64,000 nucleotides of DNA, taken from a virus. This document shows, piece by piece, positions 1,361 to 33,843 of the stretch. Numbering within the stretch: the first letter of the stretch is position 1; each line of letters opens with the position of its first letter. The translations under genes were made by a program, and so were the position numbers. The notes under the pieces were generated by a model. The model made no database searches. It was not told the origin of the DNA and worked only from the letters and a program-made list of their open reading frames with translations. The DNA is taken from the IMG/VR virus record IMGVR_UViG_3300025115_000006, positions 3,920 through 67,919 of that record. One strand, given 5' to 3'.

Positions 1361-2931
1361 TATTTTTGTTTCTCCCAACATTCTAATGCTGATTGATATC
1401 TTTCTTTTGGCTTAGGAAACTTTTCTTCTTTCTCTATCATGAATCTCTCAACAAATTGTTGTCTTGTTTCACCTTCAAGTTTTACAAGTTCAAACTGCTC
1501 TAAACTTTCACCCATAGATACTTCACCTATACCACCATCTGCTGTGGATGTTTCATTACCAAGTGCTTTATTAAAGAAGGCAACATTCTTTTCAACATCT
1601 CCTGCATTAGGATTTACAAATGCTCCCTTGGAACCTTTTTTATCTGTCTTTTTGTGTCTTCTTGCTGTTTTCTGTAACTCATTTTCTTCATTGAGTTCAT
1701 CTTCTTCTTCATCAAAATCATCGCCATATTGGTCATGATAACGGTCTTCATCATCTTCTGAATCATCATCTTCTGAATCATAATCATCTTTGCCTACATG
1801 TTTTTGAAGATATTCACTTTCATTTGCAATGGTTTTAAGGGCATCAAGAACATCTTCTGGAGACATGTTGTAATCTGCCTTGAAGAAAATTGCACCGTCA
1901 TCTGTAACATCAAATTCAAGTCCATCATATTTCTCATCATCAGGATAATTATCAAATGCCCAATTCTGAGTTTCTGCATCAGAAATAATTCCTTCAGGTC
2001 TTCCATCTCTTAACCAAACGGTGAAGTGAAAACCATCTTGAGTCCAATATTTGTCATAGAAATCTTTTTCTCCCTCATTTGTCATACAAACAAAGTCTTC
2101 AACAGGAGTTCCATCTTCTTTAATCCAATGCTTTTCTAATTTATTATTTTCTACTTCTTCTTTAATTTTTTTATCTTCTATTTCTTCTGGTCTAATATCT
2201 AGTCCTGCAGTAATGTGTCCATCTTTCATTAAGCCAAAATTATAGGTAATGTGAAATCTTCTATCTGGGTCAAACTTCTGAATCTTGCCTGAAATTCTAT
2301 CAAACTCTTTTTCAAATGTTTCTTTAGTGAAATTACTCTTCTTACTCACAATTTGAATGTGAACACTATAAGATTTATCATCACCAAATAAACTTCTATA
2401 CTTCTCAGAACTAGAAATTTCATATCCACCTGTCTTGAGTAAATTTAAAAATTTCTCAATTGTTTCTTCTGAAGGAGATGCATAGGTATAAGTCTCTTTC
2501 ATAGGCTCAGGATTAAGTTCTTTAAGTGGTTCAGGATTAGGCTCTTCTGAATCTTCCTCTGAATCTTTCACTGGTCTTAATTCAAGTTCTACTTCATATA
2601 TCTCTCTATAGTCAGCCTTAATAGTTTCTAAATCACACCCACTTGCACAGATGACAAAAAGGTCAGCGGGAAGTTCTTCTCCGTTGATATGTGCTGTATA
2701 GATTTCATAGCCATTTTCTTTTGCAAATTCAATTAAATCTTCAGTAGACATTCCAATCATACTTGCCAAACTATCAGCAAAAACATATCCTGGAATTTCA
2801 TTTTCCTCATCATCTAGACCCATTATTGTTGCATCATGCAATAACTCTAAGACATCAATATCTACATCAAATGTAGGAATTGTGTCTTCTGATTCGTATA
2901 ACTTATTTTTATTTTCAAATTTATTGTTCAT
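1360..2931 (-). CDS. acidic multi-domain protein, putative head-internal protein
   Basis: 523 aa, very D/E-rich, LYES/LKE/IKEE/LNEE linkers, C-terminal ETRQQFVERFM..FP...RY module, TGCTAAATT motif upstream. Confidence 0.65.
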   Translation of the reverse strand: MNNKFENKNKLYESEDTIPTFDVDIDVLELLHDATIMGLDDEENEIPGYVFADSLASMIGMSTEDLIEFAKENGYEIYTAHINGEELPADLFVICASGCDLETIKADYREIYEVELELRPVKDSEEDSEEPNPEPLKELNPEPMKETYTYASPSEETIEKFLNLLKTGGYEISSSEKYRSLFGDDKSYSVHIQIVSKKSNFTKETFEKEFDRISGKIQKFDPDRRFHITYNFGLMKDGHITAGLDIRPEEIEDKKIKEEVENNKLEKHWIKEDGTPVEDFVCMTNEGEKDFYDKYWTQDGFHFTVWLRDGRPEGIISDAETQNWAFDNYPDDEKYDGLEFDVTDDGAIFFKADYNMSPEDVLDALKTIANESEYLQKHVGKDDYDSEDDDSEDDEDRYHDQYGDDFDEEEDELNEENELQKTARRHKKTDKKGSKGAFVNPNAGDVEKNVAFFNKALGNETSTADGGIGEVSMGESLEQFELVKLEGETRQQFVERFMIEKEEKFPKPKERYQSALECWEKQK

Positions 2932-2977
2932 ATGGTCTCCTTAATGATTTTCAACATCATATAATTTAGCATTAGTT

Positions 2978-5900
2978 TTATGATTTTTTATTCTGTTTTC
3001 TGCATATTCTTTTATTTCTACTTTCCAAAAAGTTCGATGTGATGCATCTCTTTATTTTTTTCATGATAGATTTTTCATCCTCATTATTTAAATCATAGGT
3101 TGATTGTTGTCTCTTACAATATACAATTAATTGTTTATTGTCAGCATCAACTCTTCTGGAAATCCACTCCTCTAGAAGTTTCATTTGCTTTTGAGTTAAA
3201 CTGCTGTCTATAACAATCTTGCATCTATTCTCACTAAATGTTCTTCCGGTGTTTAGTGTGATAAAATTTAAATCTTCAACACAATAATTGTAGGGTCCAA
3301 TGAAAGAAAACTCATAGAACTCAGATAAAGAATAATAAAATACCGCCTCTAGAAATTCACCGTGTGTGTCATACTCAGTTGCATTTAATATGCTTCCATT
3401 TGGAGTTATTAGAATAACAGGAGTATCATAATAAATTGCGTCACTGTCAATATAAGAAATATCATCTTTGTCTGATAACTTTTCAACAGCGTCTAGAACA
3501 TCCTGCTCAGTTGGAAGTTTATATTCTTCATTTACTTCATTTATTTTATTTTCAACAACATTTGAGGTCTTATTTTTACTATAATATGATTTAATTTGTT
3601 GAATAATCTTATATCCAGTCCAGTTTCCTATCTGCTCCTCAAGACTTGTATAAGCACATGCACCTTCATATAAACTGAACACTTTATAGAATGTGTATTT
3701 TCTAGAAACTAAATCATATATTTCAGCCTTGCAGTATGAGACAGCATCTAGATATGTATCAATTATTCTCTCTAACTGTGCATATTGTTTTTGTGTAGGT
3801 TCTTTATATAGTCTTATACAAGTATCTTCTTCAAGATGAGTGCTTGAGAACTCAGCATATTCCATCTTCTGTAACTCAGGGTCCTCTCCATGATACTCCT
3901 GTAAATAGATGAGACTTCCATCATCTGTTACATATCCTGCAGTTTGAAGTTCAACACTTTCTTTAATAGTTTTATCTGCTTCAGTTAATTCATTGTTTAT
4001 TTGTTCAATCTTACTTATATCTGCCTGAGTGTATATAATCTGATACTCATCTTTGTATACAATTTTTTTAGGATGAACAATGAATTTTGTTAGATTATAT
4101 CCTAAAATTTCAAGGTCATATTTTATGTCATTAATAAACCCTTTAAATTTATTGTAACCAAATTCTGTAAAAGCACTTCTATAAATGTTTTTACCATATT
4201 TATCTCCAAATAAATTAACATTAGGAACAGGAAGTTCTTTTTCAATTTCATAAAAGGCTTCATCAAGGTCATTAATTACATCTTCTATTTCTGTGCCTAA
4301 ATATTTATCTTTTATATAACCTTGTTTATCTTTATATTTCTTTATAACACTATCTATTGACTGAAATAGTGAGCCAAATGTTTCTATTTCAAATCTGTAA
4401 AAAATGTCATCAGTCTCAATTTCAACCTCAACATCCTCTTCATCTTCTTCAGGCTCTTCTTTTTCAAGAGTTTTCTCAAGTTCTTTTATTTGAGTTCTAT
4501 ACTCATCATTAGTTAACACACCATCATTCCATTTTTTTATAACATCACTTATCTTTTTATGAACATCATCATTTGACTCTGTTAGTTTGACATTTGATAT
4601 TTTCTTTATTTCAATTATATCATCTTTTGAGTAATGTGTCAATCTTACTTCTGGAACAAGATATGCACTTCCATCTTCTGTAACATCAAATCTAAGTTGT
4701 TTATTTAAAGTCTTTTCAACCTCTAAAACATCATACTCTGCTAATATAGGTCTTATGTTTTCATTAATGTGTAATAAAACAACATAGAAGTAATCTGTTT
4801 CAAATTGATTGTTAATGTAAGTTGCAATATCATGATAATCTTCAAGTGAATATTCACTCAAAGGAAATGTGAAGATTGACTTCTTTCCAGACCATCTCAT
4901 TCCAGTGTTCATTGGTGTTATTTTATTGTTTTTCTGAAGAGCATTATATTCATTTTTGTTTATGAATCTAACATGAGTTGACTGTATATCTGTCTTACTC
5001 TCTTTAATGTTCATAACACTTGTTAATTGATAACCGTTTTTAGTAGTGTTTAGTTTATATATGTTAGTCACATCCTTTATTGTATACATAGATAGTCCAT
5101 ACTCAGTGACCTCCATTGTTGCTTCCCAATAATCATTAGGGTCTTCATAGTCTTCTTTTGATACATATACGTCACTATAAATACCTACACCTTTTTTAAC
5201 AGTATTTCTAGGAACTTCAATAACTACAACATAATCCTCAGAAACAATACCTGTCATAAATCTAGTTGCTTCATTTGCAATATAATCATTGTCTTTATAC
5301 TCAAGAAAAAATAAGTTCTTACCCTTTAATGTTGTATTGCCTTTTGCTGAATTATAAGCAATAATAGGCTTGCCTTGACTTAAAAGTTCGTATTCTCTTT
5401 GACCAATGAATCTAAAAAGTTTAATTGTATCTAATGTAGACGACTCCTTAAGTTTACCTGCGTGAGTTGCTTTTTTATTTGATTTACTCTCTATGGTATT
5501 CATATCATCTTGATGTGTAAGAATGTGATACAGTTCATTTTGACTTAAAAGATTATCACAGTAATCTCTTGCAAACTCCTCAACAACTTCTTCCTCATCT
5601 AATTCATCTAATTCAAAGACATCATTTAGATACTGAAATAGCCCGTGACCAACTTCATGAGCAATAGTTGACTTGATATCCATTCTTAAATCATCACCAT
5701 TTGCTTTTATAGACTGTTTATTTAAAGCAATAGGAAAAACACTTGCATCATCTTGAAGACTGTTTAAAAACATTCCTACACTGTCATTTTTAAATTCATA
5801 GTCTTTGACATATTCTGTCTCAAAGCCAAATCTATATAGGAATTTGTTTATTTCATTAAACTCATTTTCAACAACTGTTGTGAATCTATCTTTTTTTGAT

Positions 5901-7663
5901 TCCTCTAATTTTCCATTTGCATAGTATTTTGTAATCTTCTTGATAATCTCAGATGTATCAGGATACTCATCTTTGTTATACTTTGTTGCTGACCATGAAT
6001 TTCCTTCAACATACACTCTCAGTTTATCTTTACCCTCTTTAAAGAACTGATGAAATATATACTCATCAAGAGTGTCTAATGCTTGATTGGTAGGTCTTGT
6101 TTTTGGAAGATTGACATATAGATTGTCAAATAAGGTATCACCACTATTAACTTTAATGCAACCATTTTGAACAAGTGAATCTTCATCATCACTTAATCTG
6201 TAATTTGTGTCTAGTGTGTTATCTTTCACACCTAATTTATAATTTATAAAGTATTGAACCAACGAGTGAACGGGAAAATTACTAGGACGCATTTTATCCC
6301 AGTCTACTTTGTTATTAGGAATTCCTTTATATAAAGGCTCTCTAGCAACATCATCAAAATCTAACTCTTCACTACCAAAATAATCTTTCCACCACTGTTC
6401 CATATCAAGAAATTCTCCTGTTGGAAGAATGTATGAACTATATTTTGGTGGTCTTTTTGTGACTCCAAACTCATCTTTAACTAACTTATAAATTTTACTC
6501 CAAGAAGCATTTACAACTGATTCATTTACATTATCTACCAACTGAACTCTTGGAGTATTGCCATCAATCCAACCATTATGAACATAATGCTCTTTATATT
6601 TACCTAATGCCTTTGCTAGAGGACTTGCTTTGTATCTATCATCACTTCTTGTAGTAACTACACCAAAGTCATAAATAAATTTTCCTTCATAGCCGTCTTC
6701 TGAGACATCACTTCCATAAGTTTCTTTTTCTTTTCCATTTGGAGCATAAATATAGTAAATGACATTTCTGCCATAATCATCTAAGTATTCATCAAGTTCC
6801 CAAGATTTCATGTCACCATAATAACCACGATTAAGAGCCATTCTTACCATGTCACCATGAATGTAATCATAGGCATCACAGACAAAGAACCTGTTTAACT
6901 TTCTATCCCAAAGTATTCTCAATGAGATAGAAGATGCTTTTATGCGATTAGCAACCTCAATAGGACTTTTTGTTGTAAATATTTCTTTTTCATCATCAAC
7001 AAACTCTTCTTTTAGAATTCTCTCTTCCTTTAAAAATTTACCTAATGAATAGTATTGAACAATTGACTTAATAACATCATCATCACTGTCAACACTTAAA
7101 TCAAACACTGTGATATCTTTTGGTGTTTGAATAAGTAAAGGCTGTTCCATGTCATAAATGTCATTATTATCTATTTTATTTATTTTACTTGCAATGTCTC
7201 CAACAGCAAAATCAAACTCACCTTTTCTAGAAATTATTTGTCTGATTGCAGATATTTGAGATGCTGTGATTCTTGTATTTGGTAAATATAGATATGGATA
7301 TGTTACATTCATTTTAATTGAATTTTCTAATAGAGTTGTTACACCATCATTTCCAAACTTAGTATAAACCCAATCATCAAAATCTGAGTGTTCATAAGCC
7401 AGACTAAAATCAAAGTCATTAGAATCCATATTTTTTTCTGGATTTAAAAAATGACCATTAGGAAGTATATATGTTGACCACATATAAATTTTCTTTTGAC
7501 CAAACTGATTATCTATGGCGTCTAGTATTTCTTTATCTGTCACGCCTTCTGATGTTTGTTCAAGGATTCCATTGTCTAGATAGTTCTTTTTAAGCGTTTT
7601 TATTTTTAAATTTTTATCTTGTCTGTTCAAATTGATTGCCCTCACTATCCTATGAATAACCAC
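2978..7663 (-). CDS. large polyvalent protein (4 copies of an unknown domain, HExxH zincin, ART-like domains)
   Basis: 1561 aa ORF; AHEVGHG...EEFARDY; repeated YILPxG...CIKVN...PT..Q...IK.YY..G.LEES units; likely true start is TTG at 7630 after GAGGG. Confidence 0.75.
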   Translation of the reverse strand: MVIHRIVRAINLNRQDKNLKIKTLKKNYLDNGILEQTSEGVTDKEILDAIDNQFGQKKIYMWSTYILPNGHFLNPEKNMDSNDFDFSLAYEHSDFDDWVYTKFGNDGVTTLLENSIKMNVTYPYLYLPNTRITASQISAIRQIISRKGEFDFAVGDIASKINKIDNNDIYDMEQPLLIQTPKDITVFDLSVDSDDDVIKSIVQYYSLGKFLKEERILKEEFVDDEKEIFTTKSPIEVANRIKASSISLRILWDRKLNRFFVCDAYDYIHGDMVRMALNRGYYGDMKSWELDEYLDDYGRNVIYYIYAPNGKEKETYGSDVSEDGYEGKFIYDFGVVTTRSDDRYKASPLAKALGKYKEHYVHNGWIDGNTPRVQLVDNVNESVVNASWSKIYKLVKDEFGVTKRPPKYSSYILPTGEFLDMEQWWKDYFGSEELDFDDVAREPLYKGIPNNKVDWDKMRPSNFPVHSLVQYFINYKLGVKDNTLDTNYRLSDDEDSLVQNGCIKVNSGDTLFDNLYVNLPKTRPTNQALDTLDEYIFHQFFKEGKDKLRVYVEGNSWSATKYNKDEYPDTSEIIKKITKYYANGKLEESKKDRFTTVVENEFNEINKFLYRFGFETEYVKDYEFKNDSVGMFLNSLQDDASVFPIALNKQSIKANGDDLRMDIKSTIAHEVGHGLFQYLNDVFELDELDEEEVVEEFARDYCDNLLSQNELYHILTHQDDMNTIESKSNKKATHAGKLKESSTLDTIKLFRFIGQREYELLSQGKPIIAYNSAKGNTTLKGKNLFFLEYKDNDYIANEATRFMTGIVSEDYVVVIEVPRNTVKKGVGIYSDVYVSKEDYEDPNDYWEATMEVTEYGLSMYTIKDVTNIYKLNTTKNGYQLTSVMNIKESKTDIQSTHVRFINKNEYNALQKNNKITPMNTGMRWSGKKSIFTFPLSEYSLEDYHDIATYINNQFETDYFYVVLLHINENIRPILAEYDVLEVEKTLNKQLRFDVTEDGSAYLVPEVRLTHYSKDDIIEIKKISNVKLTESNDDVHKKISDVIKKWNDGVLTNDEYRTQIKELEKTLEKEEPEEDEEDVEVEIETDDIFYRFEIETFGSLFQSIDSVIKKYKDKQGYIKDKYLGTEIEDVINDLDEAFYEIEKELPVPNVNLFGDKYGKNIYRSAFTEFGYNKFKGFINDIKYDLEILGYNLTKFIVHPKKIVYKDEYQIIYTQADISKIEQINNELTEADKTIKESVELQTAGYVTDDGSLIYLQEYHGEDPELQKMEYAEFSSTHLEEDTCIRLYKEPTQKQYAQLERIIDTYLDAVSYCKAEIYDLVSRKYTFYKVFSLYEGACAYTSLEEQIGNWTGYKIIQQIKSYYSKNKTSNVVENKINEVNEEYKLPTEQDVLDAVEKLSDKDDISYIDSDAIYYDTPVILITPNGSILNATEYDTHGEFLEAVFYYSLSEFYEFSFIGPYNYCVEDLNFITLNTGRTFSENRCKIVIDSSLTQKQMKLLEEWISRRVDADNKQLIVYCKRQQSTYDLNNEDEKSIMKKIKRCITSNFLESRNKRICRKQNKKS

Positions 7664-7770
7664 TCATCTAATTTAGCAACAAAAAAAGAGTGTTTTAATT
7701 TGTCATTGAAAACAAAATAAAGTCTACATAAATACATGATGTAGACATTATTATACAATATTTTATTTTT

Positions 7771-8133
7771 TTAAATGAAGTCAGTTCTGCTCACACCAAA
7801 GTATGCATAAGGGTCTCTTTCATAATCTCTAGCATCTTTGTAATATTCAAAAGCCTCATCTTCAAAGTGTGCTAATATATCATCTTCAAACCATTCAATA
7901 AATTCATCTTCATGCTCACTAATAAAATCTGTGAGCATTGAAAAGTCAAAATCTTTTTCATTAATATCTTCCCAAGTTGAGATTACTTGTATCTTCTTCT
8001 CATCAGAAAGTTTTGACCCTATTTCATGAACAAACTCTAAAATCTGTTCTTTTGAAATTATTTTGATGAAATCATTCAATTCAATCTCATACTCAAAGTC
8101 TGTATCATTAAAGTTATATATAATTGTAGACAT
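7771..8133 (-). CDS. small acidic hypothetical protein
   Basis: 120 aa, AAGGAG RBS, D/E-rich. Confidence 0.7.
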   Translation of the reverse strand: MSTIIYNFNDTDFEYEIELNDFIKIISKEQILEFVHEIGSKLSDEKKIQVISTWEDINEKDFDFSMLTDFISEHEDEFIEWFEDDILAHFEDEAFEYYKDARDYERDPYAYFGVSRTDFI

Positions 8134-8150
8134 TAATTTAGTCTCCTTGT

Positions 8151-10982
8151 TTATTTCACATCAAAAAAATAGTGAATATCATTATTAGTATTGTATATAA
8201 TTCCAATTTTTTGTTTTTCATTAACGGCTGTTATAACCTCTTTTTCAAGTGCCTGTTTTGGTAATTTTCTATCTCCACTATATAAATTCTTCTCATCAAG
8301 ATATAAACAAGAATCAAAAATAACCTGAGACATGTCTGTTGCATCCCATAAATTGTCAGTATCTACTGTATTTATACAGTTACCAAAATAATACCAAGAT
8401 GAATATTTTTTACTGCATACTTCTAAGTTGTCTATATTCATACCACTGTCCACAGGTATACTCATTTTTAGAAAGTCTTTATTTATATTACTTTCCTCTA
8501 ATCTGCCAGTTGCATAGTATCTTTTTATCTTCTTTATAATGTCTTCTGGAAAGTTTTCTTCTGAATAGTAAACCTTTCTATTTGCCTGTGAGCCACGCCA
8601 ATCTAAAACATATATCTTAGAATGATTAATAAAATAATATTCAAGCCATCTTAAAAGAGAATCAAATTGTTTTGAGTTAGGTCTTACTTCGGGCATGACC
8701 ATATACTCTTCAAAACCTGTGTTCACTCTAATGCAGTTGTGATTAAGATAATAACTTCCTCTGAATTGTTGAACATGTTTACCAATATAGCCGTCAACAT
8801 CTAAATGCTGTGCCTTACCACTAAAACTTTCTCCACCACTCATTCCATTTATATCAACATTTGCTTCCCATATCTTTAGAAATGAGCCGTCTCTCATGAT
8901 ATAACTAGGACCATCAACAGGTTCTGAACTTGTTCCAAGGTCTTTCATAACTCTTTTCTCAATCTCATCTCTTGTTAATACTTGGTCTGCTTGTTCTGAT
9001 TCATTTATATATCTCTCTTCTAATATATCTACAACCGAACTAAATGGAATAATTCCATGATACTCATATGTGTGAGGAATATTATCATCATCTAAAACTA
9101 CATTTGAATCAATTTTTAATTTATTAGGTTCAAGTTTGCTGACATCTATCTTTAACACAATTATATTTTCAGCATACTTATCATAGTCAGCAACATCATC
9201 TAGCCACTCGGCAGTTTCCGCATAACTATAGGCAACATCCTTATCATCCGCTAAATAAACAACTCCTCTTACAGAGTCAGTCCACATTTTTCTTTTTGTG
9301 TTTCCTAAACCTTTTTCTTTAATTGACTTTAAAAATGGTTTGTAGGTAGCATGATATAAATATTTATAATTTTTATCTTCTGATTCATTTATATAATCTA
9401 TATAGCCTATTTGATTTTCATCTTCAAAAACAATGTTTACATTATTTCTATTTATTTCTGTTTTAACTAATGACCAGTCACCTTCATTTAAAAGTTTACT
9501 AATTCTATTAAATTTATCAAAATTTCTTTTCACAAATTCATTAGAAAAGGCAAATTTAACATCATCACCTAACCACTTCTCAGGAACTACATGTTGTTGC
9601 ATCAGGTCATCAATAATGTTTTCTAATTCATCGTCATTATCTTCATCATCTTCATTATCATAAATGTATTTCCAAACGGGTGAAAAAAGACCGCCCAAAT
9701 CATCTCCAAAAGCATCTTTAGTTGTAAATCTATAAAAAATATTATTTGTGCTTAATGATTTCTCATTTATATTTTTACTGTTTGTAGGTTTCTTATTGTC
9801 TATTGATTTTATATCATTTGCATTAAAGACACCAAATGTAATGTGACCAAGTTCAATGCACTTCAATCCATCATAACCTTTTTTAACTACTAGATTCTTG
9901 AATTGATTGCTTCTAGTCAGAACATGTATTTTCATCTTATAGCCATTTCTAGGCTCATCATATTCTTCTGCAACTTCTTCAATCATTGCTCTCATCTCTT
10001 TCTCATCTGCGTTTAGTGATTTTAAAATGTCTTTAAACACAGGGGAAAAGTCATAGGGCATGATTGGTCTAAGAGTGAATATATTTTCATCAGTAGAGCC
10101 ACAATCAAGCACCCTAGAGCAACCTAGATAGCATTGGTATTGATGCCCACCATTACGGTCCTTATTAGTCCAATTACCATACTCTTTTGCATAGTCTTTA
10201 CTAACTGAAAACCAATTTATTTGAGAAGTAAATTCCTCTTTATCAAACTTCTTATGAGTTCCATGATAAACAACCAATAATCTATTTTCATCATCTCTAA
10301 CTTGACTGTTTTTGAAGAATTCAATTTGTTCATTGGTTAGTTTATTTCCTTGACTATCTACATTTTCTGATGATGCATCTTCATCAAGTCTATTTAAATT
10401 ATGCATTGCTTCAATGTTACTTAGTTTCATTTTTTGCATCATACTTGATTCAACCAATCTTCCTGTTTGATAGTAATTCTTTATGATATATATTATATCA
10501 TCTGATGTCTTGTTTGTCAAGGAGAAATATTTATATTGTGACTTTTGATGAGGCTCTAATATCATTAAATCAGAACTCCATCTCCACATAACATGTCTTC
10601 CCCAAAACTTATCAAGTAAGTTTAAAAGAGCCTTATATTGTCTTGATGTAGGCTCAACTTTAGAAAGCATAATAAAACCTTCAGTGTCAAGATTTACTCT
10701 GATGCACCCAAGGTCTTCAATTGGAGGGCATCCTCCTGTGTAAGTGTCAGATTCATGTTCTACATATTCATTCTTTATAAGCCAATGTAGCACACTTGCA
10801 TGTGAGTTATGTCCTAATGCAAGAATTTTTCCAGAAGGAAAAACATAACTCCTTGAAGATGGCTCATCACTAATTGTGTATCTTTGTGATAGAACCTTCT
10901 CAAAGTCATTTATGTTTGTTAGTATTTTTGTAGAATCAGATTCAACAAGAAGAGAGGACTTGTCTAACTTTATTTTTGACAT
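8151..10982 (-). CDS. polyvalent protein with ART-PolyVal-like and KptA/Tpt1-like ADP-ribosyltransferase-fold domains
   Basis: VVYHGT...WFS...YAKEYG...GYDG; YLYHAT...SIKEKGL...VYLA...VLKID; two copies of the repeated YI..G/CIRVN domain; GGAGG RBS. Confidence 0.75.
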   Translation of the reverse strand: MSKIKLDKSSLLVESDSTKILTNINDFEKVLSQRYTISDEPSSRSYVFPSGKILALGHNSHASVLHWLIKNEYVEHESDTYTGGCPPIEDLGCIRVNLDTEGFIMLSKVEPTSRQYKALLNLLDKFWGRHVMWRWSSDLMILEPHQKSQYKYFSLTNKTSDDIIYIIKNYYQTGRLVESSMMQKMKLSNIEAMHNLNRLDEDASSENVDSQGNKLTNEQIEFFKNSQVRDDENRLLVVYHGTHKKFDKEEFTSQINWFSVSKDYAKEYGNWTNKDRNGGHQYQCYLGCSRVLDCGSTDENIFTLRPIMPYDFSPVFKDILKSLNADEKEMRAMIEEVAEEYDEPRNGYKMKIHVLTRSNQFKNLVVKKGYDGLKCIELGHITFGVFNANDIKSIDNKKPTNSKNINEKSLSTNNIFYRFTTKDAFGDDLGGLFSPVWKYIYDNEDDEDNDDELENIIDDLMQQHVVPEKWLGDDVKFAFSNEFVKRNFDKFNRISKLLNEGDWSLVKTEINRNNVNIVFEDENQIGYIDYINESEDKNYKYLYHATYKPFLKSIKEKGLGNTKRKMWTDSVRGVVYLADDKDVAYSYAETAEWLDDVADYDKYAENIIVLKIDVSKLEPNKLKIDSNVVLDDDNIPHTYEYHGIIPFSSVVDILEERYINESEQADQVLTRDEIEKRVMKDLGTSSEPVDGPSYIMRDGSFLKIWEANVDINGMSGGESFSGKAQHLDVDGYIGKHVQQFRGSYYLNHNCIRVNTGFEEYMVMPEVRPNSKQFDSLLRWLEYYFINHSKIYVLDWRGSQANRKVYYSEENFPEDIIKKIKRYYATGRLEESNINKDFLKMSIPVDSGMNIDNLEVCSKKYSSWYYFGNCINTVDTDNLWDATDMSQVIFDSCLYLDEKNLYSGDRKLPKQALEKEVITAVNEKQKIGIIYNTNNDIHYFFDVK

Positions 10983-10995
10983 ATTTACCTCCTTG

Positions 10996-11289
10996 TTATC
11001 TAATTTTATATGTTTTGTTTTTTAAACCTTCATGTAGTTTGTGATACAACACATCAAACCCAGTGATTCTAGATGGAGACTGTCTAGTGACACTTGTCTT
11101 AGATAAGAATTTTTGAATAAGAACCTCTAAGTCAGTTTCTGTCTTTAACACAATTGGTCTATCTAGATACTCATGAGTTTCTTTAGAGTTGATTCCTCTT
11201 TTAACATGATACCCATAAACAACACCATAAGGATTGTGTTCTTTAAAAAGGTCATTAGCAAGTTTGAGTGCTTGTTCCTGTGAAATCAT
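10996..11289 (-). CDS. hypothetical protein
   Basis: 97 aa ORF, translationally coupled to upstream gene. Confidence 0.6.
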   Translation of the reverse strand: MISQEQALKLANDLFKEHNPYGVVYGYHVKRGINSKETHEYLDRPIVLKTETDLEVLIQKFLSKTSVTRQSPSRITGFDVLYHKLHEGLKNKTYKIR

Positions 11290-11639
11290 TATTCTTCATC
11301 CTCCTCATCTTGCTCTTCATCTTCTTCTTCATCTTCTTTTTCTTCAATGAATTCTTCAAGAGCCTTTTCTCTGCATTTTTCAGTAACATAGTCAATGAAG
11401 TATTCATCATCTTCAATTTCACTTAATGCACCAAGACCAGATAGAACATTAAAGATGTGATTATCTGTTCCATCAAGTCCAACTTCATTTACATCAAAAT
11501 ATGCAACTACGCCTGCAATGTAGTCTTCAAAAGAAACATTGTATGAAAAGTATTCCTCTTTCTTATCTTTATATTTAAATTTATAGTCAATATAGAAATC
11601 ACTTCTATTGCTTTTTTTCCAAGAATCATAATAGCCCAT
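11289..11639 (-). CDS. small acidic hypothetical protein
   Basis: 116 aa, AAGGAG RBS, acidic tail. Confidence 0.7.
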   Translation of the reverse strand: MGYYDSWKKSNRSDFYIDYKFKYKDKKEEYFSYNVSFEDYIAGVVAYFDVNEVGLDGTDNHIFNVLSGLGALSEIEDDEYFIDYVTEKCREKALEEFIEEKEDEEEDEEQDEEDEE

Positions 11640-11654
11640 ATTTATCTCCTTATA

Positions 11655-13019
11655 CTAAATCTTAGTAATTTTATAAGATGCTGAGTAAGTATCAGAGCCA
11701 TCTTCTTCGGTGACATTAGACTCAATGTCAATATCAATATTTTTTTCATCGAAGAATTTTTGAATAGTTCTCTTAAAGAATAGATGTTGATGTTTCCAAT
11801 CTCCCCACTCAATTTGAGCCTCAATAACACCGGCAGAACTCCAGATGTCAAAGTATTCACCTTCATCAAAGAATTTTTGTGTCAACTCTTTAACAAATTT
11901 ATTTGCTTCTTCTTCACTGAACTTTTTACCAACTGATTCTTTAATGGTCTTCTTAGTCAACGACTCATCAGCAAATCTGACATAATTGTAAGATAATCCT
12001 TCACTGTCTTCGCCTGCATAGCCAACTTCTGCTTTCTTGAAGTCAGCAATCATTTCATCCCAAAGTTCTTTAATTCTTTCTCTAGAGATAGCAGGATTAC
12101 CAAAGTTATCAGCCTTTAAGAAGTTACCAAGATATCTGTTTTTGATTTCTCTTTCAAACAATTTGTTAAATGATTCATCACTGTCACCAGGTTTTGCGCC
12201 ATAGACAAGAATGCTTACCATCATATTTTGAGCGGAATTTTCTACATACTCAATTTTTTCTGCGTCACTCATCTTTGACCTTTCTTTTCCATACAATTCT
12301 TTTCTCTTAGCATCAATTTGCTTTTGTGTTGCTTCTTTGATATATACTTTCTTAGATTCAATGAGAATGTCTTCGTATGCAAACTCATCTGCAGAACATA
12401 AATAATCAGGATGTAGTTTATATTCAAGTTCATCAGCAAGTGCTTCTAAATCTTTGAGAGGTCCTTCAACAAAGAAGTCTGGGTCATCTCCATCTTTTTG
12501 TCCCATTCCAAGACCTTTTCCTAAGAAAGTCAATTCAAATTCATCGCAAAGTCTTTCAAACTCTGGCAAGAAGTTTTCAATTGAACTAGGAAATTGATAT
12601 ACCATAATTTCAGTTGATTCAGAATCAAACTCTTCATTTATGTTGATACCTTGTAGTCTGTCAATAACGGGTTGCAACATTTTTTCAACAGTTGACTGGT
12701 CATCATAAGGAGTATCAATGTCAAGAATAATTTCTTCATTGTCTTCAAATGCTGTTAATCCTGATGATTCTAGATACTTTCTTCCAAGGTCAGTAATGGA
12801 GTCATTTGAAACATGATATTCAGTCCACAATACATTACCTTCAAAAAGAAGACATTCCACTCTGAACAGTTTTTTACCATTTAAAACAACATCTGCAATG
12901 TATTGACAGATTCCATCCCACTCAGACATGTCATCTGTTGGGTCAGTTTCAATCTCATGAAAGTATTCTTCCCAAGTTTTTGTTTCTTGATTTAATAATT
13001 TAAACTCATTGTTGTTCAT
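11655..13019 (-). CDS. acidic multi-domain protein
   Basis: 454 aa, INEE/LIES/IKEA/IKES linkers; ATG overlaps upstream stop. Confidence 0.7.
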   Translation of the reverse strand: MNNNEFKLLNQETKTWEEYFHEIETDPTDDMSEWDGICQYIADVVLNGKKLFRVECLLFEGNVLWTEYHVSNDSITDLGRKYLESSGLTAFEDNEEIILDIDTPYDDQSTVEKMLQPVIDRLQGININEEFDSESTEIMVYQFPSSIENFLPEFERLCDEFELTFLGKGLGMGQKDGDDPDFFVEGPLKDLEALADELEYKLHPDYLCSADEFAYEDILIESKKVYIKEATQKQIDAKRKELYGKERSKMSDAEKIEYVENSAQNMMVSILVYGAKPGDSDESFNKLFEREIKNRYLGNFLKADNFGNPAISRERIKELWDEMIADFKKAEVGYAGEDSEGLSYNYVRFADESLTKKTIKESVGKKFSEEEANKFVKELTQKFFDEGEYFDIWSSAGVIEAQIEWGDWKHQHLFFKRTIQKFFDEKNIDIDIESNVTEEDGSDTYSASYKITKI

Positions 13020-15604
13020 AATTTATATCCAATTCCTTTCAACGCATTAGCGATATTTTTTTCAAATTCAATATCTTGACCAATTAAATATTTTTTCTTT
13101 TGCCATCTCTTTGCAATTTTTTCTTTTGGAAAAACAGTGATAAACTGAGTGTCTCCTTTATACATTTGTGAGAATGTTGCAGAATCTCCATCTTTTCCAT
13201 TTTCCTGATACTTAAACACAAAATCAAAATTCTCTAGTGTTTCAATTACATCAGAAATTGAGTGTCTTAAATCTTCTTCTTTTATTAAACTATTAAAATC
13301 ATTCCACATTTTGTCTACCTTATCAACATCATGTGACAAACCCTCAATTGTTGCAACCCAAAAACCTGAATTATCCAATCTATTGGCTACGATTTTAACA
13401 TTGTTTTCAAAACATAATTTTCTTAAATCTTTTTCTTGAACTGTTTTATAAAATATGATTGTGTTGTATTTGTAAGACTCATTTTTATTTTTTTTTCTGT
13501 TTTTAAATTTACTATAAGCAACTGCTAGTCTTTGTTTTTGATTTGGAAAGTCTTTCTTTGCTAGTTTTGTTCCCATGAATCGAGAAACATACTCTTTTTC
13601 TTTTTCATCTTTTTTAGGCTCAATAAGTTTTTCATTTTTAGACTTTTTCATTGACTCATCAAACTGCTCAATCCATGAAACACTGTTGATGTAGTCACAA
13701 ATGCTTGAACTGTATTTATTATCTTTAATATATTTACACAATGCTTTCTTAACATCTGTCTCAGTTCCACTGTCTAATGCTCTTGTAATCTCATCAGCAA
13801 CTTCACCATACTGCATTGCATCACTGTAAAATTGTTCAGGATTATATTCAATTCCATCTTTTCTGTCTAAAATTAAATCAACAATCATTTCATTAAGTTG
13901 CTTTCCTTCTTTATAGTTTATACTATCATGAATAATTCTTGATTTAATGCCTTTTGATTTATCTAGTTCAGCAAGTTTGTCTGCAACCTTTTTAAAATCT
14001 TCTTTTTCTGTTTTAATAGAGTCAACAGCATTTATGTCAAGATAAATGGACCAATTTTCACCATTCTTACTTGTTGCCCAGTGATACTCAGATTCATCAT
14101 ATGGATGAAAAGACTTTACTTCATAAAAATCTTTTTTATTTAGCCATTCAATGTAGTGGGTTGCACCAAAACGAACACTGTCAATGTATCCTAAATCATA
14201 ACTATCATAAGAGCCGTTTTTCTCTTTACTGTGTTTTGGCTCTAGTTTTTCTTCAATTTCTTCTTCTTCTAACGATTCTTCTCTTGCCCATAATTCAAAT
14301 TGAGTTGCAAATTGTGCTTGACCTGAGATTGAGAATAAGAATTCACCATTAGGATGTTTATCTAATGCTGTCTGTAAAATTTCTTTAGGACTGTCATTTC
14401 TATCATACCAGCCACTTTCAAAGTCAGATTCAATTCTAATAAAACCTAGTTCTTCTAAGTTGTCATCAGTTAGAATTGTATTCGCTAATCTTTCTTTATT
14501 GATTAATGACTGAACATATTCTTCAGCATGATTGCCTCTAACACAATCGCCACAAAGAATTTCACCATCAGTAACCCAATAATCAGGAACAAATGAATAA
14601 CTGTCTGGTTGAGTTCTAATAACTTTACCACACTCATCACATCTACTCCACTCATCAGAAAAGCCCCATTCAACATCTTTTAAATTGTCAATAACACTTG
14701 TATCATATTCATCTTCAGGCTTGAAATCAGGCTTGATAATTTGTTGCATTTGTTTAATGGTATCCCAGCCATAGACAATTAAAAAGACTTTTCCATCTTC
14801 ATCTTCTGCTTCTTGAAAGTCAACGCCTGAATCATATAAATCATTAACAATTTCAGAAGTTAATTCAATCTTTTCTTGTGCCTCATTTATCTTTTGTTCA
14901 TTACTGCTTTCTTTCATGCCAGGAACTACAACCATTGTAACACTATCTTCCCACTCAAAATAAGCATCATTACCAAAGTCTGCTTTAATTGCTTGTTCTA
15001 GTTGAGGAAAAATGTCATCTGAGACATCAGGAATTTTAGCCCCAAATTCATCTGCAACTTGCTGATAAAAATACATCTGGTCTTCTTCATAGTTAAAGGT
15101 ATATTGTTCATTTGCATCATATAAGAACCATTGACCATCTCTTTGTTCCAAGTTAAAATTAAAAATCGGTTCAAAAACTTCATCTTCAAACTCTACAGGT
15201 TTATTTAATTTAATAATTAATTCTTTTAGATGTTTAGGCTCTTTATTCACAGCCTCTGTCATTGCTTCTTGAACAGTCCAAAGTTTTGGCTGAGTCTCTT
15301 TAAACTCGCCTAAAATTTTTAATTTACTAAGTGTTTCATTTGCAAATTCCAATGCATCAGGACCAACTTTTTCAGGATTGTATAATCCATCTTTATAGTA
15401 GTCTTTAAATACCTCACGATACAGAGTTCTCAATTCTTTAAATGACTCATCATCTCCAAAGTATTCTAAGCATTCACTGTAATCAGAGCCATCTGGCCAG
15501 ACATAGAGCCATCCACTACCATAGTAGGCATCTTCATTGTTCATTGCGGAAATGACTTGATTCATTTTCCACGCTTGTTTTGCGTTTGAGATTTTTTTGT
15601 CCAT
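13016..15604 (-). CDS. acidic multi-domain protein with CxxC...CxxC module
   Basis: 862 aa, RCDECG...LCGDC, linkers MKES/INEA/LNEM/IKEE, AAGGAG RBS. Confidence 0.7.
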   Translation of the reverse strand: MDKKISNAKQAWKMNQVISAMNNEDAYYGSGWLYVWPDGSDYSECLEYFGDDESFKELRTLYREVFKDYYKDGLYNPEKVGPDALEFANETLSKLKILGEFKETQPKLWTVQEAMTEAVNKEPKHLKELIIKLNKPVEFEDEVFEPIFNFNLEQRDGQWFLYDANEQYTFNYEEDQMYFYQQVADEFGAKIPDVSDDIFPQLEQAIKADFGNDAYFEWEDSVTMVVVPGMKESSNEQKINEAQEKIELTSEIVNDLYDSGVDFQEAEDEDGKVFLIVYGWDTIKQMQQIIKPDFKPEDEYDTSVIDNLKDVEWGFSDEWSRCDECGKVIRTQPDSYSFVPDYWVTDGEILCGDCVRGNHAEEYVQSLINKERLANTILTDDNLEELGFIRIESDFESGWYDRNDSPKEILQTALDKHPNGEFLFSISGQAQFATQFELWAREESLEEEEIEEKLEPKHSKEKNGSYDSYDLGYIDSVRFGATHYIEWLNKKDFYEVKSFHPYDESEYHWATSKNGENWSIYLDINAVDSIKTEKEDFKKVADKLAELDKSKGIKSRIIHDSINYKEGKQLNEMIVDLILDRKDGIEYNPEQFYSDAMQYGEVADEITRALDSGTETDVKKALCKYIKDNKYSSSICDYINSVSWIEQFDESMKKSKNEKLIEPKKDEKEKEYVSRFMGTKLAKKDFPNQKQRLAVAYSKFKNRKKNKNESYKYNTIIFYKTVQEKDLRKLCFENNVKIVANRLDNSGFWVATIEGLSHDVDKVDKMWNDFNSLIKEEDLRHSISDVIETLENFDFVFKYQENGKDGDSATFSQMYKGDTQFITVFPKEKIAKRWQKKKYLIGQDIEFEKNIANALKGIGYKL

Positions 15605-15629
15605 GTTTGTATCAATTCTCCTTATTTAT

Positions 15630-15658
15630 ATTATACAACTTATTTTATTTAATGTCAA
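15630..15658 (-). promoter_or_regulatory. sigma-A/sigma-70 promoter
   Basis: TTGACA-17 nt-TATAAT on minus strand, 26 nt upstream of the 862-aa ORF. Confidence 0.8.
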
Positions 15659-15736
15659 CTGACAGAAAAGACAAATTGTCTAAATTTGCTATCAATTAAT
15701 TTAGCATCTAATTTATCAAATAAATGAATACAAATG

Positions 15737-15764
15737 AAAAAGAGACTCTTTACAGAGTCTCTTT
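15737..15764 (-). terminator. intrinsic terminator after major capsid gene
   Basis: 11-bp stem AAAGAGACTCT/AGAGTCTCTTT, 4-nt loop, T-tract. Confidence 0.75.
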
Positions 15765-15790
15765 GTTTTTTACTAAATTAGTTAATTAAC

Positions 15791-17128
15791 TTATTCTTCT
15801 ACTGCAGTAAGAATTGCAGGAAGAGCATCAGTGTTAATTTCACCGGCAACTACTAACAAGTCATTCAATGTTTCAAGTGCATACATTGTTGACCAGCCTT
15901 GACTCATACCACCGTCTGAATAACCAAGTAATTGAGTAGGAACCACAGCCATGTATGGAGCATAAACGGCCGCTGAGGATTGCATGTCATCACCATTAAC
16001 ACCAAGGACAAACTTACCAGCCGCGATGTTTGGAGTAACAAACACTTTAATACCATCTAATGTTCCTGCAAGGTATGGACCATTCATTGAGCCAACTCTT
16101 GATGCCACGAAGCCTTTTAAGAACTTCAAGACAGGAAGAACATTACTTGCAATGAGCATATAGTTAGGAGTAAATCTCTTAGTTCTATCATAGATTAATT
16201 GTTTACCAATTTCAACGATTTCACTAAAGCCTTCATAGTGTTCAGCCTTGGACACGCCAACAGGAACAACTTTTGACCACTTGAGTAATGAGTTTGAAGC
16301 ACCAGCAAGTTCAATAAGTTTGTCTGTGATTTCAGTGTCAATTTCATAAGCCAATTGTCCAACTGCTTTTTCTGCTAATTGGTCACCTAAGTCAAATCCA
16401 TAGTCAGTCTTTGCTTGGAATGCCGCGATTTGTGAGTAGTAAATAGCAACTCTACGAGCCTTAGCAATAAGAGCAATACTTGCTAACTTAGCATTGATAA
16501 CTGGAAGGTCATTTTGAGGAATAACCACATTATCATATGTGTAAGCAATACGCACAGATGCGCCATTAGCAGGAGCCACCAACAGTGTAACAACACCAGT
16601 TGATGCAACAAAAGTAGAGCCCGCAACTTCAGAACCAGCAACAATAACTTTACCTAATGCAAGAACAGGAGTCCAAGCAACAGTAAATGTAGTGGCAGAG
16701 CCATTACCAGTAAATTCTTCAACAACTGCTGAAGATGTGTAAGCAGGGTCAACTGCGCCAAGTTTGAAAGGTTCATTGAATACATCACCTTGAGCGGTAG
16801 CACCTTTAGTGGAACCTGCTGTGTATTGAATGTAAGTGATGTAACCACTCATTGAAGCCATTGGATGAACAATAACTAAGTCATGAGCAATTAAGTTAGG
16901 AAGAGCAACTGTGGTTAAGTTTAATGTGAATTTCTTGAATAATCCCAAATCTGAGCGTTGGGTTCCAACTGAGTTGGCGAAGGCTTCATTCATGAACTTG
17001 TTAGTATTGTTTAAGACCATAGCAACAGCCATTTTCTTAGTATTACTTAAAGTATCGCCTTCATGTGCTTTTGAATAAACGCTTTCTGCAACGCTTAATC
17101 TTTTAGCATATGTTTCTAATAGTGTCAT
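15791..17128 (-). CDS. major capsid protein (T4 gp23-like)
   Basis: LPNLIAHDLVIVHPM, AKARR, QLAYEID.EI, AVYAPY motifs; follows the prohead protease; strongly biased codon usage; followed by terminator. Confidence 0.92.
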   Translation of the reverse strand: MTLLETYAKRLSVAESVYSKAHEGDTLSNTKKMAVAMVLNNTNKFMNEAFANSVGTQRSDLGLFKKFTLNLTTVALPNLIAHDLVIVHPMASMSGYITYIQYTAGSTKGATAQGDVFNEPFKLGAVDPAYTSSAVVEEFTGNGSATTFTVAWTPVLALGKVIVAGSEVAGSTFVASTGVVTLLVAPANGASVRIAYTYDNVVIPQNDLPVINAKLASIALIAKARRVAIYYSQIAAFQAKTDYGFDLGDQLAEKAVGQLAYEIDTEITDKLIELAGASNSLLKWSKVVPVGVSKAEHYEGFSEIVEIGKQLIYDRTKRFTPNYMLIASNVLPVLKFLKGFVASRVGSMNGPYLAGTLDGIKVFVTPNIAAGKFVLGVNGDDMQSSAAVYAPYMAVVPTQLLGYSDGGMSQGWSTMYALETLNDLLVVAGEINTDALPAILTAVEE

Positions 17129-17168
17129 TTTAAATTCTCCTTATGAATTTTATTTTTATTTTGTGTTT

Positions 17169-18677
17169 TTATTTTTTTAAGTTTGCGAGAGTCAACAATG
17201 AATCGTCAATCTCATCGTCCATATCAGAACCAGGTCTTAGATATTCATTCTTTGACTCTGTAACTTTAACCTTGACTTTTCTGCCAACGCTGAATGGAAG
17301 TTTGCTTATGTTTAGAGCATAAGACTGAAGTTCTTCACAGATTTTGTCAATGTCATCAATAGTGTATGTTTCATTTAATCTGTTCTTGATTTCATTTGCT
17401 GACACCCCAAGCATGGTAGCCTTTGATTCAATATATCTACGAACTGTATCATTAGCAATCTTCTTATAGTTCTCTGCCAACTTTTCAGTCTTCGATAATT
17501 TGCTTGTGATTTCTTTTTTCTGTGTTTCTAACAATTCTTTGGACTCATTGAGGCTTTCACTGAGTGTTCTAATCTTTTGATTGATTTCTGAGTTTTCATT
17601 TTTCAATGAGGTTAAACTTTCATTCAACTTTTTAATCTCTTGGTCTTTCTTAGATGCTGATTCTTGTAATCCAACTTGTGAATCTTTAACAGATTCATTT
17701 AGTGTCTCAATTTTAGCCCTTTGAGTTTTTATTACTCTAGTTTTGACTTCTAACTTTTCTTCTAACACGGAAACTGTTTTTTTGAGTTCCTTGGACTCTT
17801 TTGCTAAATTACTCAATCTAACTGTTGTAGACTTATATCTACTCAGTTCTTCTTCTAATTTGCCAACCTTAGCATCGCTAACTGCCAACTTGTTTTGAAG
17901 TTCAAGTAAACTTGCTTCTAAACCCGATTTACTCTTGACTGCTTCCTGAAGACTCTTCAATAATTCGTCAGACCCGTTATTAACGGCTTCATCTGATTCT
18001 GATGAATCTTTGTTATCAGTAACTACTATATTATCACTCTCTTTTGAAGAGGAATAATCAATCTTTAATGTGTCTAAGGTTTCTTGCATCAGTTTTCTTT
18101 CTGTATCACTTGATTGTTCAAGTGCCTCATTAAGAGCCTGTTTGAAAGTTTTTTTACCAACTGATTCAACTACTGGAGTTAATCTAGCCGCCTTGACTGC
18201 AGGTAGTAATACAACATCAAACGCTTGAAAGTCATATGTATCACTATCTACTTGCTCATTACCATTGTCATCTGCAAACACATCACCTGTGCCTCTTGAA
18301 CTGATTCCAATCTTATAACCATAATCTACAAATGTTTTAAGAATTCTACCATTAGGTGTATTTAAGATGTCCCACTTGCCCATTAATAAACCTTTATTGT
18401 TTTTTTTAGGTGCTTCTTTCATACAGATAGCAATCTTTTCCATATCTGTTTCACTTCTATCTGCAGGATGACCAAGTTCACCGAAAATACCACCATTTTC
18501 AAAATGTTCTTTTACAACATCACTGTTGAAAACTTTTTGCCACAGTTCTTCACTGTAACCTCTTCCATTTCTAGTAGGATTTATAATATCGGCACACGGT
18601 CCAACAAGAGTGCCTAAAATAGCAGAATTATTTTTTTCTGATGCGACATATGTCAATTTTTCATCTTTTTTTGCCAT
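17169..18677 (-). CDS. prohead protease (gp21-like) fused to coiled-coil scaffold (gp22-like)
   Basis: NGRGYS, FGELGHP, ILNTPNGRIL, IGISSRGTG, FDVV..P; C-terminal coiled coil with many LxES sites. Confidence 0.9.
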   Translation of the reverse strand: MAKKDEKLTYVASEKNNSAILGTLVGPCADIINPTRNGRGYSEELWQKVFNSDVVKEHFENGGIFGELGHPADRSETDMEKIAICMKEAPKKNNKGLLMGKWDILNTPNGRILKTFVDYGYKIGISSRGTGDVFADDNGNEQVDSDTYDFQAFDVVLLPAVKAARLTPVVESVGKKTFKQALNEALEQSSDTERKLMQETLDTLKIDYSSSKESDNIVVTDNKDSSESDEAVNNGSDELLKSLQEAVKSKSGLEASLLELQNKLAVSDAKVGKLEEELSRYKSTTVRLSNLAKESKELKKTVSVLEEKLEVKTRVIKTQRAKIETLNESVKDSQVGLQESASKKDQEIKKLNESLTSLKNENSEINQKIRTLSESLNESKELLETQKKEITSKLSKTEKLAENYKKIANDTVRRYIESKATMLGVSANEIKNRLNETYTIDDIDKICEELQSYALNISKLPFSVGRKVKVKVTESKNEYLRPGSDMDDEIDDSLLTLANLKK

Positions 18678-30198: not shown

Positions 30199-30202
30199 TT
30201 GA

Positions 30203-33423: not shown

Positions 33424-33620
33424 TGTAATTTTTTGCACAGTAGACGATACATATCTAGATAGGACTATTTGAATTTATCTTTCAAATCTAGATAAGGTTA
33501 TTGTAATTTTTTGCAGAGTAGATTTGCACAGTAGAAGGTGCATATCTAGATAGGACTTTTTGGATTTATCTTTCAATGCACAGTTTCAATGCACAGTAAG
33601 TAAGACATATCTAGATAAGA
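33424..33620. repeat. iteron-like direct repeats in long non-coding region (candidate origin)
   Basis: TGCACAGT x4, palindrome ATCTAGAT x4, a roughly 50-nt unit present twice. Confidence 0.6.
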
Positions 33621-33843
33621 TTATTTAGATTTAAGAGTGTCTTAGAGAAATGAAAATTATTTAGTGGTAAAACACAAATTTAGCAGTTTTAGCAGTTATC
33701 TAGTTATAATCTCATTACAGACACTTTAAAACTCAATCCTATGCTGTTTATTCTTTGTTTGGCAGACTTTTAAGTGTTTCTGATATAAAGTAACTGACTC
33801 ACATTAAAAACCAGCCTAAACAGTTTTTTGACACTATTAATTG

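Follow-up and report, generated by a model that had tools for sequence, protein, structure and literature searches.

In a phage with a T4-like head, the DNA that encodes a short linker peptide between the modules of a large polyvalent protein probably serves as the joint at which modules are gained and lost, and the same linker would also be a protease site in this presumed virion-associated effector. The gene in question, denoted open reading frame (ORF) E, occupies positions 8151..10982 on the minus strand of a 64,000-nucleotide (nt) stretch of viral DNA (positions 3,920 to 67,919 of the IMG/VR record IMGVR_UViG_3300025115_000006; hereafter, the window) and encodes 943 amino acids (aa). Three types of alleles were found in close relatives, with the module orders ART-M2-Tpt-S2, ART-M2-S2, and ART-S2, and the joints are located in linker DNA. 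In the window these modules, all encoded on the minus strand, are the ADP-ribosyltransferase (ART) domain ART-PolyVal (PF18760, aa 230-400, 9783..10295), module M2 (aa 408-529, 9396..9761), which matched no family, a mini-ART module resembling the C-lobe of Tpt1/KptA (aa 536-657, 9012..9377), and S2 (8493..8993), the second copy of a repeated domain of about 155-170 aa that directly follows a linker and ends with YYATGRLEE/S (slashes within motifs mark putative cleavage positions).

Linker repeats and natural alleles

Two copies of the 18-mer TTCTGATTCATTTATATA are present in the window, at positions 8994-9011 and 9378-9395 (plus-strand coordinates). On the minus strand, both copies read TAT ATA AAT GAA TCA GAA and encode YINESE, that is, aa 530-535 (upstream linker copy, 9378..9395, between M2 and the Tpt1-like module) and aa 658-663 (downstream copy, 8994..9011, leading into S2) of ORF E. 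Exact and mismatch searches confirmed this repeat, which had been reported in a preliminary description of the DNA made from its letters. A third copy was not detected within the window even when two mismatches were allowed, and two matches were reached in none of 100 shuffles. The copies are spaced by 384 nt, that is, 128 codons, in frame, and their identity stops sharply on either edge of the 18 nt. Altogether, the window contains four direct pairs of at least 18 nt within 1 kb, compared with a mean of 0.02 in 100 dinucleotide-preserving shuffles, and 102 pairs of at least 14 nt, compared with a mean of 43. The 18-nt repeat is real and goes beyond plain chance. A third linker, SKNINE followed by KS, is located at the end of the ART-PolyVal domain (aa 402-407, 9762..9779, minus strand). 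The 10-mer TCATTTATAT occurs four times in the 64 kb, where 0.79 occurrences are expected, and four were reached in none of 100 shuffles. Three of the four copies belong to the three consecutive I-N-E linkers of ORF E, at positions 9001, 9385, and 9763, the last of these (9763-9772) lying inside the third linker.

For the analysis of alleles, Logan contigs of four runs were placed on positions 7700-11300 at 80% likeness. One contig from a manure metagenome (run X3, record 16; 1403 nt, depth 5.5) corresponds to positions 9378-9782 with its bases 1-405 and to positions 8509-8993 with its bases 406-899, so that exactly 384 nt are skipped, with nothing between. At this joint, which retains one linker copy, 17 bases fit either flank; the joint has a side of 255, and its flanks share about 90% identity with the window. 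The preliminary description had predicted such an empty allele with a single linker, and direct repeats that flank a unit, together with a natural allele that lacks the unit and one repeat copy, constitute the configuration of repeat-mediated gain and loss. A second contig, from wastewater (run X4, record 23; 1797 nt), joins positions 9763-10415 (bases 1-653) to positions 8783-9000 (bases 654-871) and thereby skips 762 nt, or 254 codons, comprising both M2 and the Tpt1-like module; 10 bases at the joint are ambiguous. This joint, from 9000 to 9763, is located inside the 10-mer common to all three I-N-E linkers. The same architecture was found at the protein level in P0003 (725 aa, three sources), in which ART is joined directly to S2 (...NSNNINE/SEQSEKTLT...), as in the 762-nt-shorter allele. 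The Tpt1-like module is retained between NINESE and YINESE in P0002 (833 aa, 88% identical), and a contig of run X2 spans the upstream repeat (9228-9404). Taken together, the 384-nt and 762-nt natural alleles support the earlier proposal that domains are gained and lost by recombination at linker DNA.

Other matches to the protein were less informative. P0173 is a broken fragment that ends just past NINESE, neither the whole protein nor P0003 retrieved a relative from viral_contigs, and a scan of metagenome_contigs yielded one distant locus (L002, 59% in S2), which has another architecture and is unsuited to comparison at the DNA level. In the Logan contigs of the source run (X1), the boundary between two successive contigs, of which the first ends at 9424 and the second starts at 9398, adjoins the upstream repeat. 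This break at 9398-9424 may correspond to a branch of the assembly graph or may be meaningless, and it was not counted as evidence.

To place ORF E among related proteins, seven of its segments were mapped onto 22 homologues, across which its modules recur in other orders and combinations. The Tpt1-like module follows an S domain in P0005 and is located far downstream of the ART domain in P0014, M2 is also present in P0007 and P0184, and P0009-P0012 end exactly at the linker that terminates the ART domain (...NNINK-stop). Other lineages flank the Tpt1-like module by a linker of their own, which is the same on both sides: KHMNE in P0005, and GVAE, SIAED, or ENFADG elsewhere. Similarly, FKHMNE is present on either side of M2 in P0007. 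At the DNA level, 42 IMG/VR loci with the domain were fetched in a search that used the closer alignment set, the wider set being too diverse, and 40 of them were examined after two loci truncated at contig ends had been dropped. In 20 loci, which were analyzed, the domain is embedded in a larger frame that is coding on either side of it. In-frame exact repeats of at least 11 nt bracket the domain in four of these 20 embedded loci (16, 16, 11, and 19 nt), compared with 3 of 606 displaced control windows (0.5%). Because three of the four bracketed loci belong to the GVAE lineage, the number of independent cases of recurrence is lower than four. Two further loci, L007 and L015, are stand-alone mini-ART genes (frames of 129 and 148 aa) with exact direct repeats of 19 and 21 nt outside the domain; the repeat of L007 includes the start-codon region.

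In the preliminary description, the identity of the two 18-nt copies at synonymous positions was taken to suggest a recent duplication. This suggestion is unsupported, since the orthologous module of P0002 already carries both linkers: the module and both linkers thus predate the split between the window and P0002, and no recent duplication needs to be invoked. At 82%, the identity between the P0002 module and that of the window is similar to the 86-92% of the neighbouring modules, and a quick tree built from 85 sequences of the module placed the two as sisters (Shimodaira-Hasegawa-like approximate likelihood ratio test 97). The X3 allele may be either a later deletion or an older state. A few shared letters hint that the X2 and X3 contigs are closer to each other than to the window, which would favour a deletion; this hint was not used, as 40 of 314 differences were visible and one site was conflicting.

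The bracketed module

The repeat was described earlier as bracketing a whole domain of the KptA/Tpt1 type. The first part of this statement held, as the homology span, the ordered core of the structure model, and the range of tblastn matches all end near the linkers. An exhaustive HMMER search with 134 residues, linkers included, yielded 552 cluster representatives at E<=0.001, among which homology extends from query residue ~11 to ~121-128. Many of these homologues are stand-alone proteins of 110-140 aa, and in others the module is found at varied positions in proteins of up to 1662 aa. By tblastn against phage genomes, nine Lak megaphage records were retrieved, matching aa 539/540-650/655 only. 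An AlphaFold2 model of the module, based on 58 sequences, has a predicted local distance difference test (pLDDT) score of 88.4, a predicted template modelling (pTM) score of 0.81, and an ordered core from residue 11 to 126. The first and last ten residues, that is, the linkers, have a pLDDT of 55 and are disordered.

The second part of the statement, the assignment to KptA/Tpt1, held for the fold and the NAD-binding lobe, but not for family membership or architecture. In Foldseek searches with the model, Tpt1/KptA was the top match (E 1.3e-4), followed by DarT, the A chains of cholera and pertussis toxins, and Arr. Alignment with VIA-align to the Tpt1 of P. horikoshii gave a Z of 11.6 and a root mean square deviation of 2.2 A over 89 residues, with 28% identity, whereas Z was 7-8 for DarT, the toxins, and CC0527. 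The superposition covers chain residues 85-177 of 177 only, which correspond to the NAD-binding lobe, and the sequence profile of the module reaches Tpt1 chains at E 0.0013. However, the gathering cut-off of PF01885 was missed (14.5 compared with 26 bits, at profile positions 90-126 of 177), as was the NCBIfam cut-off for Tpt1/KptA (14.7 compared with 239), and only 5 of 58 family members matched PF01885 at E<=0.01. While the module shares the NAD-binding ART lobe with Tpt1/KptA, the N-terminal RNA-binding lobe is absent from its 122 aa, and therefore it is not a Tpt1 enzyme. As modelled, the module is a mini-domain with an ART fold, which is related to the NAD lobe of KptA and forms a separate family of about 115 aa. 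Across 58 module sequences, little or no variation was seen at residues Y14, H15, A16, T17, S41, E60, D96, N98, and Y112; NAD binding and transferase activity are putative. The window's module has no Atlas entry; the named Atlas clusters closest to the homologue P0266 are Arr-ms and PARP, which are leads only.

Linker motif, proposed mechanism, and competing explanations

The linkers fit the pattern of a hydrophobic residue, any residue, and Glu, followed by Ser. In ORF E, such sites are LVE/S at aa 12-14, after a short Lys-rich leader, LVE/S at 176, INE/K at 405, INE/S at 531 and 659, and LEE/S at 828, and each of them is located at a module edge. The consensus of the T4 prohead protease is Leu/Ile-x-Glu. 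A gp21-type prohead protease is encoded in the window itself (17169..18677, minus strand; Peptidase_S77 at aa 31-172; PF03420, E 1.4e-11, 44.7 compared with 27 bits; phrog_207). Its coiled-coil, scaffold-like tail contains many LNE/S-type motifs, namely PVVE/S just past the protease domain, three copies of LNE/S, and LQE/S, LSE/S, YIE/S, and VTE/S. The capsid protein has FMNE/A at residues 46-48, immediately ahead of its Gp23 core. Short N-terminal leaders terminate in hydrophobic-x-E.

Counts of [LIVMFY]xES were compared with the means of residue shuffles. The protease-scaffold protein has 8 such motifs, compared with 1.5 in shuffles (8 was reached in 0 of 500). ORF E has 5, compared with 1.8 (P 0.04), and ORF C (2978..7663, minus strand), a second large multi-module protein of 1561 aa with S-domain copies and hydrophobic-x-E-S boundaries, has 7, compared with 3.0 (P 0.036). 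For all ORFs at 2-18677 minus the capsid gene, the values were 30 and 13.5 (0 of 1000 shuffles), and for the remaining ORFs, 23 and 15.7 (P 0.043). The prohead protease of phage SPN3US is described as cutting at A-x-E, and those of phiKZ, 201phi2-1, and T4 also as cutting C-terminal to Glu (PMC5694885). Because an S77 protease gene is present and the motif is enriched, we infer that the linker is a putative cleavage site of the gp21-type (S77) prohead protease. Iyer et al. propose that polyvalent proteins are processed by metallopeptidase (MPTase) domains (PMC5512222). ORF C contains the motif HEVGH with an acidic stretch behind it (aa 669; window 5645-5659, minus strand), which is kept in L002 (1-1023), and the region had no Pfam match at E<=0.1. 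Judged by this motif, the HEVGH module may be a zincin-like peptidase that processes polyvalent proteins.

In the mechanism that we propose, the two 18-nt copies would be the coding DNA of one inter-module linker peptide at successive boundaries, and modules would be gained and lost by recombination within short stretches of identical linker DNA. This could occur either by deletion between direct repeats or, where relatives that differ in their module sets co-infect, by unequal crossover, with whole modules being added or removed. As the joints preserve the frame and are located within a disordered linker, every product would be a readable protein. The linker peptide would be retained because hydrophobic-x-Glu/Ser is the cut site of the prohead protease: the polyproteins would be directed to the prohead and cleaved at the linkers, and the modules would be released, as for T4 Alt and the internal proteins. 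A single short element would serve as cleavage site and as recombination joint.

Several observations weigh against this interpretation. All runs consist of assembled contigs, in which variation within populations is not visible, the exact 384-nt empty allele is one low-depth metagenome contig that is known by its alignment coordinates, and its protein form was not among the best 120 of 192 matches. As every boundary carries a similar linker, microhomology at a joint is no proof of a homology-driven event. Regarding the repeat, 5 of 21 pairs of identical hexapeptides in the ORFs of the window share their DNA, the YINESE pair included, so that DNA identity alone is insufficient to carry the interpretation; the remaining same-DNA pairs are mostly acidic or derive from a tandem domain repeat. 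ATA is the commonest Ile codon in I-N-E (6 of 9), and the S-domain end motifs GRLVES and GRLEES use differing codons. The idea that repeats in the window would generally coincide with domain boundaries was not borne out, as the YINESE pair is the sole boundary case among 33 exact repeats of at least 13 nt in the polyvalent ORFs at 1-15604, although these 33 pairs are mostly acidic low complexity and leave the comparison powerless. As for processing, the HExxH module of ORF C could be the responsible enzyme instead of the prohead protease.

Part of this evidence would be expected if the repeat were a by-product of a shared protease or linker motif and AT-rich codon bias, with the indels arising by illegitimate recombination. 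The same peptide motif is present at many boundaries, and the shared DNA of other hexapeptide pairs, the ATA preference, and the single boundary repeat in the window are in line with this explanation, which we nevertheless regard as unlikely. Given the same peptide and the codon usage of the window, the probability of six identical codons is P = 0.02. Furthermore, Y at -3 and E at +2 are repeated though outside the general motif, two independent natural joints are located exactly within shared linker DNA, and the bracketing repeats recur in other lineages, in the 4 of 20 loci compared with the null of 0.5%. Considerably less probable is homogenization of the linkers by gene conversion (concerted evolution), in which case their identity would be irrelevant to the gain or loss of modules. 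The 10-nt core that the three linkers share and the almost uniform linker codons across loci of the GVAE lineage would fit such a process, but the NINESE and YINESE of P0002 indicate that homogenization is incomplete. In addition, conversion needs recombination at the same sites, and therefore it is hardly separable from the use of linker DNA as a joint.

Another explanation, which we consider very improbable, is that the empty allele is an artefact of assembly or mapping. Such errors are a concern for a single metagenome contig of depth 5.5, but the coordinates of the record are contiguous (405, 406), with no letters between, and the allele shorter by two modules was seen independently as P0003, in three sources. 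Logan assembly uses 31-mers, so that a shared stretch of 17 nt should be too short for a false join. Finally, it is scarcely credible that the module inserts itself and that the 18-nt repeat is a target-site duplication by a dedicated enzyme: although the direct repeat brackets the unit exactly and the module family is widespread and often stand-alone, the 122-aa ART fold lacks nuclease, transposase, or intein features, the flanking repeats differ by lineage, each matching its own linker motif, and the neighbouring M2 behaves alike, with FKHMNE on both sides in P0007.

The interpretation of linker DNA as a joint can be extended, tentatively, to phages with T4-like heads in general, in which the cleavage-site linkers of head-packaged effector polyproteins might constitute an in-frame recombination grammar. 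If this is true, each lineage would keep one short linker matched to its prohead protease at all module boundaries, with largely identical DNA, and any two boundaries, in the same genome or in co-infecting relatives, could recombine into readable, cleavable combinations. Such a grammar would amount to exon shuffling without introns for injected anti-host arsenals, and populations would be polymorphic in effector content, with measurable frequency. The mosaicism of polyvalent proteins is known, whereas shuffling that leaves frame, folding, and processing intact is so far unexplained, and the literature that was searched contained no account of how polyvalent domains shuffle with the reading frame kept. 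A linker that is both protease site and joint would explain the fast turnover of injected effectors. It would also make module boundaries predictable from sequence alone and provide a natural design rule for exchanging cargo domains in phage heads.

Related systems and the genomic setting

Deletions between short direct repeats in phage genomes are known from T4 and T7 genetics. ORF E resembles these cases in its exact direct repeat of about 18 nt and in the shorter allele that lacks one copy and the intervening DNA, but its repeat is a conserved functional element at domain boundaries, and the products are in frame and modular. In highly variable loci of T4-type genomes, PeSL cassettes shuffle at short conserved sequences, with homology of <50 bp, in keeping with the 'linker' idea of Botstein and Campbell (Arbiol et al., 2010, PMC2839356). 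The use of short conserved sequences as recombination sites for cassette gain and loss is common to PeSL loci and ORF E. However, the PeSL joints are intergenic promoter/stem-loop sequences and the cassettes are whole genes, whereas in ORF E the joints lie within the frame, in a coding linker, and it is domains that move. In polymorphic toxins, cassette recombination diversifies effector domains without altering the remainder of the protein, and the toxin domain is set free by releasing peptidases (Zhang et al., 2012, PMC3482391). In these toxins, the C-terminal tip is replaced along with an immunity gene, whereas in ORF E the changes concern internal modules, which are gained or lost between repeated linkers. 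The Tpt1-like module is internal, between M2 and S2, and no immunity gene is evident, although no search was aimed at one. By analogy, the proposed mechanism would be the in-frame, intragenic counterpart of cassette exchange in PeSL loci and polymorphic toxins.

The polyvalent proteins of phages and conjugative elements are described as showing extensive domain mosaicism, and their processing into functional units has been proposed (Iyer et al., 2017, PMC5512222). The ART-PolyVal domain of ORF E was detected with E 8.3e-13 and 49.7 bits, above the gathering cut-off of 31.2, and therefore ORF E is a polyvalent protein in the sense of that study. It is large, contains several unrelated domains (S1, M2, the Tpt1-like module, S2, and a C-terminal module) in addition to ART-PolyVal, and is encoded beside virion genes, like the polyvalent proteins of Iyer et al., which are predicted to be packaged and injected. 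In contrast to the MPTase scheme, the boundaries of ORF E carry a prohead-protease-type motif, and the boundary DNA is the joint of presence/absence alleles. The strings 'linker' and 'shuffl' occur zero times in the full text of PMC5512222, and in the literature searched, polyvalent proteins and a prohead protease came up together in Iyer et al. (2017) and in a preprint on a CRISPR system of Thermus phages. Like T4 Alt and the internal proteins, whose capsid-targeting leaders are removed by gp21, ORF E would be a head-packaged, injected effector that is cut after Glu by a gp21-type protease.

The IMG/VR viral record comprises 67.9 kb, with an estimated completeness of 40%. The G+C content of the window is 32%, and every large ORF is on the minus strand. 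The gene order is large terminase, T4-type portal (PF07230), Peptidase_S77 protease with its long coiled-coil tail, Gp23-type major capsid protein, and a run of large ORFs that includes ORF E and its neighbour ORF C. The terminase, Portal_T4, Peptidase_S77, and Gp23 genes are directly upstream of these large ORFs, on the same strand, and the polyvalent gene belongs to a phage with a T4-like head.

The S domain (about 155-190 aa) alternates with effector modules and has the pattern SY(I/V)xPxGxFL ... H ... CI(R/K)VN ... RPTxxQ ... IIKKIKxYYxTGxLxE/S. Its first copy in ORF E, S1, comprises aa 25-178 (10449..10910, minus strand) and ends with GRLVE/S. Altogether, copies of the domain are located at 10449-10910 and 8493-8948 in ORF E and at 7025-7498 and 5900-6478 in ORF C, which also contains weaker copies at aa 1272-1376 and 1451-1547. 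The domain had no match in Pfam or PHROG. A structure model was obtained with a pLDDT of 82.3 and a pTM of 0.81, for which no clear relative was found in the PDB (best Foldseek E 0.24; best VIA-align Z 4.5, gelsolin-like, among 48,161 chains). The S domain may be a packaging or spacer unit.

The C-terminal module of ORF E (aa 831-943, 8154..8492, minus strand) is absent in P0002 and in the X2 and X3 contigs, and an 81% identical copy is present in P0013. In the C-terminal region (7770-8509), X2 skips positions 8157-8508, with 18 other letters between, and X3 skips 7846-8508, with 40 other letters between, most of the ORF at 7771-8133 also being absent. The X2 and X3 genes end with ...GTLIEKNK-stop, like P0002.

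Elsewhere in the window, a phage-encoded transfer-messenger RNA is located at 38281-38647 on the minus strand (Rfam RF00023, 115.6 bits), with the tag peptide AKSLFSRVQTVLA according to ARAGORN. ARAGORN also predicted 10 tRNA genes; Rfam gave 10 matches, one of which (36798-36870) is missing from the ARAGORN list. The 983-aa ORF at 27316-30267 contains an in-frame 25-nt exact repeat (28298-28322 and 28583-28607) and a 15-nt exact repeat (28072 and 28276), with IAKDYGF recurring 95 codons apart, which looks like a tandem duplicated domain in the phrog_4264 region. A 22-nt exact repeat is present at 41765-41786 and 42255-42276; its reverse complement comprises a ribosome-binding site, ATG, and first codons, which points to two adjacent small genes whose translation start regions are identical. 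An intergenic motif (...TATTATACA... about 20 nt ...GTCAA) occurs at 15624-15658, 36501-36535, 38672-38716, 44037-44073, 45872-45908, 47258-47302, 48401-48445, and 61711-61747, and a triple 54-nt repeat at 33432-33641. Both are possibly promoter-type cassettes analogous to the shuffling elements of T4-type phages. The regions 50617-51810, 53543-55003, and 35377-36270 encode an RtcB-type RNA ligase, a phrog_850 RNA-binding protein, and a phosphoesterase/RNA-ligase-like protein, which suggests that an RNA-repair set is present in the same phage as the KptA-lobe-like module of the virion protein.

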